A stretch of 11,171 nucleotides of DNA, from positions 1 through 11,171 of the forward strand of contig JBMYPC010000103.1 of assembly GCA_049599895.1 (NCBI GenBank), read 5' to 3'. The DNA is from Bacteriovoracaceae bacterium (GTDB lineage: Bacteria; Bdellovibrionota; Bacteriovoracia; Bacteriovoracales; Bacteriovoracaceae). Each line of letters opens with the position of its first letter. Within the stretch, counting starts at the first letter, position 1. Below, piece after piece: positions 1 through 3,000 of the stretch. Made by a program: the position numbers.

Positions 1-3000
1 AAGAGAAGCCTCTCCGCGGTGAAAGCCCTGACGACGAAGAGGATGAAGAAAGTGAAGAAGCTGAATATGAAGATGATGAAGAAAATGACGAATGAGCTCT
101 TCATTTCATAAGTCATGAAATATTTCATCCCTATTTTAGTTCTTATCATTTCCAGTTGCCAAAAACCTGTCTCTAAAAAGGACGACATAAATCACGACAT
201 GCTCGAAGTTGCAAGTATCAGTGAAGGTCGTAAGCAATTTGTTATCTGCCTTGCTTGTCATAATATAAATAAAGGTGAACCCAGTCGTGGAACTTCTAAG
301 AAGCAAATTTTTGTTGGCCCAAACCTTCATGGAGTCTACAATCGCAAGGTTGCCTCTCTGTCAGACTTTAAGTTCTCCGAGGCTCTTAAGAAGCATTCAT
401 CAAAGTCATGGACCGTTGAGAACCTCGATCTCTATTTAAAAAGTCCTCATCGATTTGCCCCAAATACGAGTATGAAGTTTCCAGGCATAGGAGATCCTCA
501 AGACAGGATGGATGTCATCGCCTACTTAATGAGTTTGCAATAAGTCTTTAATGAGACCTGAGAGCCTCAACTCTTTTAGTTAACTTTTCAATCTTTTGCT
601 GCTGAGCTTTCATTGCCTCTACTAAAATGGGAACGATCTTCCCATAATCCACAGACAACCGTCCTCGGTTGTTTGGTCTAAAAACGGCTTCAGGAAGAAT
701 TTTCTCAATTTCCTGAGCAATGAATCCATAGTCGTAAGAATTATCTCTTTCCCATTGAAAATAATGTCCATTTAACTCATTAAATATCTCATAGGAGTTT
801 TCAATTGAGGTTATCGACTCTTTAAGAATTTCATCTGAATCATATTCATAGGACTTTGCTACAGTCTGTCCGATGATTTGCATAACTCCATCTACAGTAA
901 GTCCTTCAGCATCAGGGTCATCATTGTGAACAGATACTGAATCAACATTTACAGGAGACTCCGTTTCAATTCCCACTCTTCCATTATAATAAACAGATAC
1001 ACCTGAGCCCCTCGACCAAAGCTGATCATCAGTATCCGATAAAGATCGGCAAGTCTTAAGGTTCCCCCCTCCATCCATTTCAACATACATTTCAATTTTT
1101 TTAAAAAATGAATCAGGACCACCCTTTGCTTTTAACAATCCTTTTTGCTTTACCTTCACAAAAAGAAAGTCTTTAGGCCCATCCAGGAGTTCATACTCTA
1201 AAATATTAAAATTTGAGTGACCAAAATAATCTTTTTCACTACCAGCATTTCCAAGTGTGAAGTATTTTTTCTTTTCAATATTTCCAGATACTTCATCAAT
1301 TTTTTCGACGATAAAATTCGGCGTAAATGTTGATTCAAATGTTTTAAGACATTTTGCGGGATCAGTAAGAATGCTTCTTATCTCATTAACAGAGAGATTA
1401 ACATCAAGAGCGAACTGCCTTCTCACATTATTAACTTCGGCTTGTTTCATCATCCCAATGACATAATAAGCAAGGCCAGCGATCGCAACACCTAAAAGAA
1501 GCAAGACAGGAAGAATCCCTCCTTGTTCATTCTTTCTTAGAATCATTTACGACTCCCTTGGAGTCCTTTTGATTGTTCAAGAAATTCTATCGATTTTTGA
1601 AGTTTCGAGATCTGTTCATTTTGCTTTTTTAGAGCTTCAACTAGAACTGGTACAATCTTCACATAATCTACTGTGAGTGTCCCCTTTTCTGTTTTCGATC
1701 CGACAATTTCAGGCAAAACTCTCTGTACATTTTGCGCAATAAAACCGACATCTTCTTCCCCATTGTTTTTCCAATGAAACTTTACACCTTCAAGATTCTT
1801 TATTTTTTCTATAGGAGAAGAGATTTTCTTTATATTTTTCTTAAATCGAGAGTCTGATTCATACATAAATGATCCAGCCTTAATCGTGTCTGTCACATAA
1901 GTATCACCTAAAACAAAAAGATTTGGTAAGTCTTCTTCATTTAAGACGGGAGCACTTGGATCTCCAGATGGAGGATTTGGCATATCACTTCTTCCAATAA
2001 TGACTTTTCCTCCAGCGTAATAAATATCATCTCCAAGCCCTCTAGACCAAATCAGTGTATTTGATGCTAGTAAGGATCGACATCGGGAAACTCCTAAAGA
2101 TTTGTCTGAAGGATCCTTCCACTCGACATACATATTTAACTTTCTAATAAGCTCAGTTTGGGTGGGGCTGATTGTCGTTGATGATTTTTTATTTTGAATC
2201 TTTATCTCCAACACATCATCAGTTCCATCTTCTTTGAGTTCGTAGCTAAGAATTTTTAATTTTGAATTACCATACCCACTCTTCCCCTTTGCCGTAGACT
2301 TCAAAAAGTAAGACTCTTTTTCTTTTGAGTAAGTAATTGGATTTGTCGATGTATCTTTGTCGACTCCATTAACAATTGAATCAGGTTCAAGAGTTGATTC
2401 GAATGTTAGAGTACATTTCTGAGGATCTGTCAGGTGAGCATTAATTTCATTTATCGTTTGTGTGAGATCATTTCTAAATTCTTGTCTCGTTGTCGAGCTA
2501 CTTGTTAGCTGACTAATCATCACCATGGAATAAGCAAGACCACCTAAAATAACAGCACTGATTAATAACTCAATGAGTGTCACACCACCTTGGTTTCTAA
2601 TAAGGGACCTCATGTTACCTCCATCTACAAATGTATCTTCTTAACCGTTCTGAAAGCTCTTACAACAGCACCTGCTTTAAAACGATGGGCGATCTCCTCC
2701 GTCTCTATAAAACCAAGCTTCTTGTAAAAGCCTCTGGCCGTCAGGGATGAAGTTAAAGAAAGTTGAGAATACCCTCTCTTTTTAGCCTGTTTTTCAAGAG
2801 TATAATAAAGTTTAACACCAACACCTTTACCTATGCCAATTTTTGCGACATAGATTGCCATAATTTTGTCTTCTTTTATGGAACTAAAGCCTATAATTTT
2901 ATGACCTTCAACAGCAACAAAGAAATCCTCGCCATTTCCCTTTGCATTAAGGAACCCATCAACTTTCAAGTGGTCAGACCAGGCTGAAACTTGAGCTTGA

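Follow-up and report, generated by a model that had tools for sequence, protein, structure and literature searches.

How would a bacterium use a protein that begins as a type IV prepilin and ends in the self-removing chaperone of a phage tail fibre, and where in the cell envelope would the product be displayed? The question is raised by two neighbouring open reading frames on the minus strand of an 11,171-nucleotide stretch of DNA (hereafter the window) from a marine Bdellovibrio-like bacterium, each of which encodes, in order, a prepilin-type start and a predicted pilin-like head, a stalk of ~70 residues and a Peptidase_S74 chaperone. Type IV pili are required for prey invasion by Bdellovibrio, as stated in PMC3983030, and the cell anchor of the adhesive fibres of this predator is described in PMC10769870 as not known.

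Two overlapping genes with a common modular plan

The gene g02299 (positions 1543..2613 including the stop codon, minus strand) encodes a Glu5-bearing modular pilin of 356 aa, delimited by its ORF and by its Pfam N_methyl and Peptidase_S74 matches, and is followed by g02298 (548..1546, minus strand), an ORF for a Glu5-less paralogue of 332 aa. The two products are 35% identical (121/343, E 2e-59); reading frames and alignment thus both agree with the initial annotation, which had described two adjacent paralogous genes of these lengths and this identity. The ATG of g02298 overlaps the stop codon of g02299 (ATGA, an overlap of 4 nt), and g02299 is itself preceded by a strong Shine-Dalgarno sequence (GGAGG, 5 nt before the ATG and 11 nt past the stop codon of a GNAT gene). 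Convergent with the pair lies a small c-type cytochrome gene (115..543, plus strand; 142 aa, Pfam Cytochrom_C). Scanning of positions 1-6200 for promoters and terminators gave no usable signal (8 promoter-like matches against 13.2 expected, 5 terminator-like matches against 4.6 expected), and no RNA run containing the locus was found among the public runs listed; one DNA run contains 0.98 of its words and may represent the sample of origin.

A prepilin signal and a pilin-like head

The leader peptide of g02299 spans residues 1-10 (MRSLIRNQGG; 2584..2613, minus strand) and ends in Gly10, an invariant residue (40/40 sequences in one alignment, 33/33 in another). Together with what follows, it forms a class III signal, with NQGG before the cleavage site and VTLIELLISAVILGGLAY after it, in which Glu15 takes mature position 5; orthologues display the canonical prepilin signal, i.e., the Gly followed by F-S/T-L-x-E. 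Pfam N_methyl matches residues 6-24 with 22.2 bits (cut-off 21.2), and NCBIfam TIGR02532 scores 15.5, below its cut-off of 16.3. In g02298, Gly9 is kept and a hydrophobic stretch comes next, with Val replacing Glu at mature position 5, no Pfam N_methyl match and no F/T/L pattern; prepilin processing is less certain for this protein because Glu5 and that pattern are absent. Across the Glu5-less clade to which g02298 belongs (alignment A4), Gly9, Cys66 and Cys166 (g02298 numbering) are invariant. The earlier reading of these N-termini is borne out on each point, namely the N_methyl match in g02299 (and Peptidase_S74 in both proteins) above the cut-offs on re-running, the conservation of a pilin-type Gly10, and the degenerate signal of g02298.

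Beyond the leader, the pilin module of g02299 (residues 11-182; 2068..2583, minus strand) is predicted by AF2 to consist of a 53-residue α1 (H9-61) and six β-strands between residues 80 and 180, with a pLDDT mostly above 90; Cys67 and Cys178 form an invariant pair in this head in both the 40-sequence and the 33-sequence alignments. The same helix-and-sheet "lollipop" is predicted when the module is modelled alone. From a deeper alignment, the monomer model of g02299 attained a mean pLDDT of 82.8, which overturns the previous description of the model as low-confidence. The leader (residues 1-9) and pilin-like module (residues 10-170, containing Cys66 and Cys166) of g02298 were assigned from alignments and occupy 1037..1546 (minus strand).

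Against the PDB, the family profile matched the N-terminus of the PilA-N geopilin (9egp, 2.3e-5) and, more weakly, PilA, PilE1 and GspG; it also matches pilins encoded in the same genome, among them the major pilin next to pilBTC (9.8e-5). For the head, Atlas neighbours serve as leads only, with N_methyl/PilV-type clusters of Bdellovibrionota found by feature score (0.92-0.95) and pilin/GspJ clusters by structure (TM ~0.5). Foldseek searches with the head alone returned no solved structure at E<=0.001. By VIA, the head reached Z 3.5-4.7 to XcpV, GspI, GspK, FimA, PilB, FimT, TTHA1218 and PilA1 (at most 4.3 when used alone as the query), values that gp25-like non-pilins equal; the best of these scores (XcpV 4.7/4.2, GspI 4.6, GspK 4.0) all fall within the stated noise range of the tool. 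Likeness of the modelled head to any particular solved pilin is not claimed, there being no convincing solved homologue.

A predicted trimerisation unit at the C-terminus

By profile alignment, the stalk of g02299 (residues 183-252; 1858..2067, minus strand) corresponds to the triple-β-helix part of an ICA unit, and by Pfam it is followed by the S74 intramolecular chaperone (residues 253-356; 1546..1857, minus strand). The equivalent segments of g02298 are residues 171-236 (839..1036, minus strand), assigned by alignment with the g02299 stalk, and residues 237-332 (551..838, minus strand), again from Pfam. Peptidase_S74 (PF13884, cut-off 22) matches residues 253-304 of g02299 with 61.4 bits and residues 237-288 of g02298 with 45.4 bits. 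Each chaperone opens with the S-D-x3-K motif given for S74 domains in PMC10769870, i.e., Ser253-Asp254-x3-Lys258 in g02299 and Ser237-Asp238-x3-Lys242 in g02298. This SDxxxK motif is invariant in 40/40 sequences and also within the A4 alignment, in keeping with the earlier observation that Ser253 and Lys258 are conserved as a Ser-x4-Lys dyad and extending it to Asp254.

Solved structures place stalk and chaperone together. Family profile positions 179-323, the stalk included, align to the MyRF ICA (7dc3, 6e-15); the profile also matches the S16 tail fibre (6f45, 5e-16), and positions 181-220 match the MAT fibre Bd2133 (8ond, 1.5e-5), with 8ojn, 8ol4 and 8oml weaker. The model gave VIA Z-scores of 9.9 to 7dc3 (rmsd 3.2, 117 aligned), 7.2 to 3gw6, 6.7 to 4uw8 and 6.4 to 3gud, and Foldseek on the whole model returned S74 domains only (E 1e-5 to 7dc3). 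The reading of stalk plus chaperone as a complete self-cleaving trimerisation (ICA/S74) unit is supported for both proteins. The union of a pilin-type module and an S74 chaperone on one chain, as first proposed, is likewise upheld for both.

The stalk of g02299 has a low pLDDT as a monomer, but marks the start of the predicted trimer interface (residues 188-265). Prediction with three copies of residues 28-356 gave an ipSAE of 0.88 (best of three controls, 0.04), with at least 71% of contacts common to the runs and a partner pLDDT of at least 74; the homotrimer forecast at the outset is hence recovered with a longer construct. The mark applied is reached by 20/30 proteins solved as one-chain pairs and by 1/23 solved as single chains, and since solved S74 trimers exist, the pass may reflect likeness to those structures. 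Confident contacts are confined to residues 188-351 in the prediction, the pilin heads lying outside them.

Spread of the architecture among relatives

The initial annotation had found a single relative sharing the whole architecture. A word-indexed homologue search does return that one full-length protein, which is a limit of that search; an exhaustive HMMER search over 50%-identity representatives instead yielded 36 representatives at E<=1e-30. Of the best 150 representatives, which include the window's own two proteins and were classed by regular expression alone, 53 combine a canonical prepilin signal (Gly, cleavage site, then xxxxE) with a C-terminal SDxxxK, and 19 more pair the latter motif with a Glu5-less hydrophobic N-terminus. 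In a quick tree, 12 representatives, g02298 among them, form a Glu5-less clade (SH-aLRT 97). Longer relatives (485-897 aa) carry real fibre segments of several hundred residues, one with a gp37_trimer match.

Related genomes also encode many large MAT-like S74 proteins, to which, among the 150 matches listed, the profile aligns over positions ~180-324 and never over the head; the genome under study encodes no S74 protein besides g02299 and g02298. Scanning of metagenomes with the Glu5-less alignment kept 80 loci, of which 79 match by the S74 part alone and one at full length.

The combination had also been put forward as an undescribed chimera, a view that does not survive comparison with the survey of Raynaud et al. 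2021 (PMC8179133), the Dataset S1 of which lists modular pilins with IPR012902 (N_methyl) and IPR030392 (Peptidase S74) in 29 proteins, and with an extra IPR008640 in 4 more. The pilin-S74 architecture is common in Bdellovibrio-like predators and was already catalogued in 2021. Among the literature matches listed for S74 together with pilin, as judged by titles and abstract openings, Raynaud et al. is the only one to deal with the peptidase family, and a term search of two recent BALO genome papers (PMC12827227, PMC13147790) returned neither S74 nor a link between pilins and MAT fibres.

Gene neighbourhood and pilus machinery

Related loci, searched with a 10-sequence alignment, reveal an arrangement that recurs with the Glu5-less clade. 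At three of the three loci with a gene of that clade (the window, L034 and L085), a Glu5 pilin-S74 gene lies directly upstream of the Glu5-less gene and overlaps it, and a convergent cytochrome c gene lies downstream; a CxxCH ORF adjoins the pilin gene or genes in L033, L034, L044 and L085, and is a conserved neighbour by position alone. Pair and cytochrome c neighbour are conserved among orthologues just ~35-45% identical. The locus-specific feature is this conserved overlapping pair, in which the Glu5 pilin gene precedes the Glu5-less one, with a cytochrome c gene alongside; what the locus adds to the catalogued architecture is the conserved Glu5/Glu5-less pair together with a minimal "pilin plus ICA only" form.

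No pilus assembly gene adjoins the pair in the window, as had been reported, its neighbours encoding E3, E2, GNAT and cytochrome c; none was found beside the relatives examined, where triplets in two genomes (G153 and G140) follow ftsA-ftsZ. Elsewhere, the same genome encodes PilB, PilT, PilC, a major pilin and PilD (A24_N_bact plus Peptidase_A24), two minor-pilin-like operons, and a T2SS, with GspC/D/E on one contig (C25) and GspG and a GspL-like protein on another (C93).

Relation to known systems

The modular pilins of the 2021 survey carry exactly the same domain pair on one polypeptide as does g02299, with g02298 a degenerate member by homology. Where the survey deals with this pair, it gives counts alone and takes the S74 module as a peptidase, with no structure, trimer idea, predator link or Glu5/Glu5-less pair; its text describes modular pilins as "likely tip exposed". 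A likely working analogue is CofB/TcpB, in which a pilin module bears C-terminal homotrimer domains at the tip; CofB is reported to occur as a trimer on the tip of the T4bP (PMC8179133, PMC6048534). Whereas CofB trimerises by β-repeat and β-sandwich domains and is encoded inside its pilus operon, g02299 and g02298 would trimerise by a self-cleaving chaperone, and their genes are orphan. Neither CofB nor TcpB is among the 19 PDB matches of the family profile at E<=1, and the resemblance would be one of organisation only.

S74-type MAT fibres, as described for Bd3182 in PMC10769870, share with the pair the predator lineage, the SDxxxK chaperone and a related β-helix/capping segment before S74. 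By that same description, MAT fibres are set apart by a Sec signal, a conserved β-rich N-domain of ~130 aa and a long fibre (~550 Å in Bd3182); g02299 and g02298 have a prepilin base with α1, and a fibre of just ~70 residues per chain. Sequence and fold of stalk and chaperone, together with the Ser-Lys dyad, are common to the pair and to the MyRF ICA (7dc3), endosialidase (3gw6), phage T5 pb1 (4uw8), S16 gp37 (6f45) and the phi29 appendage (3gud). In these proteins, the ICA/CIMCD domain terminates a tailspike or tail fibre or belongs to a membrane-bound transcription factor of eukaryotes, and in no case is it joined to a pilin. GspK lacks Glu5. GspK-type pseudopilins are therein like g02298, with a prepilin-like N-terminus without this residue, there in a tip subunit (a position taken from the account in PMC8179133). 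They differ in that GspK assembles with GspI and GspJ as a heterotrimer and contains an inserted α-domain, with no significant similarity to the head (Z 4.0).

A proposed chaperone-clamped pilin trimer and its alternatives

We regard it as somewhat probable that the pair encodes co-expressed modular minor type IV pilins that are clamped as trimers by the ICA unit and placed at a filament tip; pilus-tip display, self-cleavage and prey attachment are what we infer from the modules and their analogues. Both proteins would be inserted in the inner membrane, and a PilD-type peptidase would cut after Gly10 of g02299 or Gly9 of g02298. Three C-terminal ICA units would zip into a trimer in the periplasm, upon which the Ser-Lys dyad would cut at Ser253 (g02299) or Ser237 (g02298) and release a chaperone of ~100 aa. 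Left over would be three pilin modules whose distal ends are tied by a stable clamp, each chain contributing ~70 residues. This assembly would be best suited to the start of a filament, the place that CofB, a homotrimeric minor pilin, takes on type IVb pili, and would therefore be found at the tip. In what is the weakest step of the scheme, the Glu5-less paralogue might constitute the outermost layer, with the Glu5-bearing protein linking it to the filament. Against the scheme weigh the lack of pilus genes next to the pair and its relatives, a head with no convincing solved homologue, and a TIGR02532 score under the cut-off; a clamp of three-fold symmetry would, moreover, have to be accommodated on a one-start helix.

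The nature of the clamp bears on what this tip could do. The proteins had been likened to a phage-like receptor-binding spike, a likeness that fails at the stalk: after cleavage, the ~70 residues per chain beyond the head would be the ICA triple-β-helix as aligned to 7dc3, and because this segment is the triple-β-helix itself, g02299 and g02298 have no separate receptor-binding domain. Prey contact, if any, would fall to the clamp, to variable loops of the head or to a partner bound by the proteins.

The same processing could also serve a filament that never reaches the surface. Processed prepilins might act in the T2SS or another non-surface type 4 filament, as a trimeric cap or as membrane-anchored periplasmic trimers; the genome does have a T2SS (GspC/D/E, GspG and a GspL-like protein), most of the head's weak matches by structure are to minor pseudopilins (XcpV, GspI and GspK, with GspJ clusters at TM ~0.5), and the mature proteins would be small and without an adhesin domain. 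We consider this unlikely, though deserving of serious weight, given that all structural scores of the head lie within the noise range of the tool, that the pair is outside the T2SS operon, and that fibre segments of several hundred residues, as carried by the longer family members, are implausible in the periplasm. The many large MAT-like S74 proteins of related genomes are in keeping with another arrangement, in which the pilin module is an export and anchor device replacing the MAT N-terminal domain and the trimer goes to the cell surface or to prey with no role as a filament subunit. S74-type MAT fibres are indeed built with these stalk and S74 modules (Bd2133, 1.5e-5; PMC10769870), and g02299 and g02298 are the only S74 proteins of this genome; however, there is no known release route for a protein with an uncleaved hydrophobic α1, and the invariant Gly and widespread Glu5 favour real pilin processing and packing, making this arrangement distinctly improbable.

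The S74 domain itself admits of two further readings. PMC8179133 mentions "peptidase activity via IPR030392", and the domain would on that account be a pilus-borne protease acting on other substrates; yet characterised S74 domains process themselves (Bd3182 cuts at its own S782, as reported in PMC10769870), the solved homologues are intramolecular chaperones, and in both proteins the nucleophile marks the very edge of the domain, as it does in characterised S74 proteins, such that a protease of this kind appears very improbable indeed. S74 domains are also abundant in phage contigs, 79/80 of the metagenome loci kept are matched by this part alone, and the genes could be seen as the remnant of a prophage tail-fibre gene with a hydrophobic N-terminus gained by chance. 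This origin is scarcely credible and was rejected: the window is without phage genes, the G+C content of the pair (0.356-0.372) falls within the window range (0.326-0.440), the N-terminal module belongs to a conserved family in which two Cys residues are invariant, and the gene pair is kept with its cytochrome c neighbour across divergent orthologues.

Returning to the clamped minor pilins at a filament tip, a more specific and quite speculative proposal, which we deem doubtful, is that in Bdellovibrio-like predators the translationally coupled pair forms a distinct pilus tip or initiation complex, with a Glu5-less trimer capping a Glu5-bearing trimer, and that this cap, rather than a PilY1-type adhesin, sets which prey is gripped by the retractile pilus. 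If the general scheme is true, a pilin trimerised by a phage-type self-removing chaperone would be one way to mount a fibre on a pilus, and the tip trimers seen in type IVb pili would gain a counterpart formed by a chaperone-driven route. The pilin-S74 family is large, and its members are easy to express.

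Domain organization of the paired proteins

The adjacent genes g02299 (356 aa; 1543-2613, minus strand) and g02298 (332 aa; 548-1546, minus strand) form a real, well-conserved pair and add a new member to a class of modular pilins that is catalogued yet unstudied. Their products share 35% identity across 343 alignment columns (E 2e-59). The initial annotation read both ORFs, N_methyl in g02299, and Peptidase_S74 (the S74 chaperone) in both proteins, and these readings hold; Pfam gives g02299 22.2 bits for N_methyl (cut-off 21.2) and 61.4 bits for Peptidase_S74, and g02298 45.4 bits for the latter, while the NCBIfam prepilin model scores slightly below its cut-off. 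The architecture itself, proposed as new, was already catalogued by Raynaud et al. (2021; PMC8179133), whose InterPro search for pilins with extra domains includes 29 N_methyl-S74 proteins (IPR012902-IPR030392), plus 4 with added IPR008640, the module being named there as a predicted S74 peptidase; the same paper describes a CofB trimer at the filament tip.

In a 40-sequence alignment, G10, C67, C178, S253, D254, K258, W281, G290, A293, Q294, and P301 are invariant. AlphaFold2 run on this alignment (mean pLDDT 82.8) yields a head in which a helix of 53 residues (9-61) precedes six strands located between 80 and 180 (pLDDT mostly >90), a poorly defined 185-250 region, and a confident C-terminal domain. 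By fold, the head has only low-scoring hits (Z 3.5-4.7), mostly to pilins and pseudopilins (XcpV, GspI, GspK, FimA, Streptococcus sanguinis PilB, and FimT), with two gp25-like proteins scoring equally; a Foldseek search with the head gave no match. Against solved structures, the N-terminus of the profile matches geopilin PilA-N (2.3e-5) and, more weakly, PilA, PilE1, GspG, and MshA. Further support for the head as a pilin module comes from matches of the family profile to pilins of the same genome, including the major pilin adjoining pilB-pilT-pilC, and from the Atlas neighbours, which are Bdellovibrionota clusters of N_methyl/PilV type (feature scores 0.92-0.95, leads only); Atlas pilin and GspJ models gave TM ~0.5, likewise leads only.

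Beyond the head, profile positions 181-220 match the Bdellovibrio mosaic adhesive trimer (MAT) fibre Bd2133 (1.5e-5), and positions 179-323 match the phage S16 tail fibre (5e-16) as well as the ICA domain of MyRF (6e-15). Residues 183-252, the stalk, are the triple-beta-helix part of an ICA unit (stalk plus S74) rather than an extra fibre, since the MyRF alignment begins directly past the conserved Cys that comes second. The "receptor-binding spike" suggested for the pair is thus unsupported, because no segment lies between head and ICA unit; fibre segments do occur in longer relatives. The chaperone itself is recovered by fold search (Z 9.9 for 7dc3, 7.2 for 3gw6, 6.7 for 4uw8, and 6.4 for 3gud) and by Foldseek (E 1e-5).

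Three copies of g02299 residues 28-356 were predicted to associate with an ipSAE of 0.88 versus 0.04 for the best control. Of 30 proteins solved as pairs of one chain, 20 reached this mark, as did 1 of 23 whose solved structures are single chains. Contacts common between runs made up at least 71%, with partner pLDDT of at least 74. As solved S74 trimers exist, this pass speaks for likeness and is no proof of binding. All confident contacts fall within 188-351 and none involve the pilin head, so in the model the three pilin lollipops stay apart and are joined only at the ends distant from their heads.

Distribution of the family

A word-indexed search returned one full-length relative. The earlier view that only one relative shares the architecture fails: among 1.84 billion representatives searched exhaustively with HMMER, 36 reach E<=1e-30. 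N-terminus classes were assigned by regular expression to the best 150 representatives (the window's two proteins included), with no case-by-case check: 60 carry a G|xxxxE prepilin signal, 53 of these together with a C-terminal SDxxxK motif (the S74 Ser-Lys motif; protein lengths 296-897 aa), a further 21 have a hydrophobic N-terminus lacking Glu at mature position 5 (Glu5), 19 of them with SDxxxK, and 69 have neither type. S74 was confirmed by Pfam in 13 of 19 submitted members, picked as long or without the C-terminal motif, and one also matches gp37_trimer.

Some part of the family profile is matched in 145 of the 151 genomes from the window's order (all but two of the 151 being in the window's family), and head, stalk, and S74 occur in a single match in at least 15 genomes besides the window's own, among the 150 matches listed (792 more). 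Public annotations of relatives read [quoted passage not shown] or "tail fiber domain-containing protein"; public records give the two closest loci with a name as "Bdellovibrionales bacterium" and "uncultured Bacteriovorax sp.", and the window DNA is present in a seawater metagenome run. The window's genome encodes no S74 protein besides the pair; its relatives encode many large ones. In two complete family genomes, three overlapping genes for prepilin-S74 proteins that share the pilin head (~525-549 aa; L074, G153:C1:349044-353769, and L075, G140:C1) lie directly downstream of ftsW-murG-murC-murB-(ftsQ?)-ftsA-ftsZ, the middle gene of the G140 triplet having Gln in place of Glu5. Elsewhere the same pilin head carries different C-termini, including Cys-rich ends. 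Three tandem genes of one relative (L019, G002:C229) join it to G-W-x-x-A-D-G ... D-L-R-G-R-Y C-termini, a pattern like that of phage tail-collar domains; if so, this pilin scaffold would carry phage-fibre modules of two kinds.

A quick tree places g02298 among 12 Glu5-less representatives that form a clade (SH-aLRT 97), and all of them keep the cleavage-site Gly. At all three loci where a gene of this clade was observed (the window and the relatives' loci L034 and L085), it overlaps a pilin-S74 gene with Glu5 immediately upstream, and a cytochrome c gene converges from downstream of the pair (window 115-543, plus strand, a small c-type cytochrome; L034:8223-8708; L085:4267-4770). A cytochrome c gene is also close by at the single-gene orthologue loci L033 (4769-5281) and L044. 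This cytochrome gene is thus a conserved neighbour of the pilin-S74 genes; in the window its product has a lipoprotein-like N-terminus (...IISSC). Past the cytochrome gene, L034 encodes a protein of 973 aa that ends in a pretoxin-HINT domain; a similarly large ORF adjoins the cytochrome gene at L033, and L085 has at the same place a 488-aa ORF interrupted by the locus end.

A proposed assembly route

Computation shows the domain make-up, the conservation of residues at the catalytic and cleavage sites, a predicted fold, and a predicted trimer whose interface has defined limits; the probable route set out here would build on these features. PilD would cleave after Gly10 (g02299) or Gly9 (g02298), and the ICA units would then trimerize, three together, in the periplasm. 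Self-cleavage at Ser253 (g02299) or Ser237 (g02298) would free chaperones of 104 or 96 aa, leaving a mature product of ~242 or ~227 aa, i.e., a pilin trimer clamped by a short triple beta-helix. Such a clamped trimer could prime a type 4 filament and end up at its tip, after the model of the CofB trimer. In the weakest step, the Glu5-less paralogue might form the outermost layer, by analogy with GspK and from the conserved gene order. The mechanism is attractive and testable.

The window's genome (97% complete) encodes PilB, PilT, PilC, a major pilin, and a bifunctional-type PilD on contig 67, a Tad-type peptidase, GspC/D/E on contig 25, and GspG with a GspL-like protein on contig 93; neither these genes nor the two operons described next lie near the pair. 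Two operons with minor-pilin-like genes (contigs 10 and 19; L082:3663-10017 and L083:3800-11598) are alike in their four genes, encoding a protein of 945/1443 aa whose prepilin-like N-terminus lacks Glu5, a ~155-aa pilin, a ~345-aa pilin, and a ~650-aa protein for which Pfam gave no match; these are possibly minor-pilin/tip-adhesin sets.

Both S74 and non-S74 MAT fibres were described in Bdellovibrio bacteriovorus by Caulton et al. (2024; PMC10769870), who give them a Sec signal followed by an N-domain that is beta-rich and conserved; in that account the cell-surface anchor is left open and type IV pili are mentioned as of interest. Our literature search, including term searches in two genome papers on Bdellovibrio-and-like organisms, found no paper connecting N_methyl-S74 pilins with MAT fibres.

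Genomic context in the window

On the minus strand, genes for dihydrolipoyl dehydrogenase E3 (lipoamide dehydrogenase; 4454-5839), 2-oxoacid dehydrogenase E2 (acyltransferase; 3122-4432), and a GNAT acetyltransferase (2625-3107) run head-to-tail into g02299 and g02298 with spacings of 21, 14, 11, and -4 nt. GGAGG lies 5 nt ahead of the g02299 ATG, and the g02299 stop overlaps the g02298 ATG as ATGA. The pilin genes may be co-transcribed with the E3-E2-GNAT housekeeping operon; upstream neighbours in relatives are not the same. The sole promoter-like site near the row on this strand is at 5907-5879, upstream of E3 (9/12 matches). The G+C of the pair (0.356-0.372) is inside the window's own range.

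An RNase_T/DnaQ-type exonuclease with a ~120-aa C-terminal extension (5969-6904) and a radical-SAM protein (7086-8120) are both ordinary and bear no relation to the pair. The 3' part (10182-10225) of tRNA-Gly(GCC) (10150-10225) has a perfect 44-nt copy at 10326-10369, 144 nt downstream, beyond which lies an HTH_3 (XRE-type) gene (10775-11170); the repeat could mark the integration of an element at the tRNA gene, as its scar or its border.
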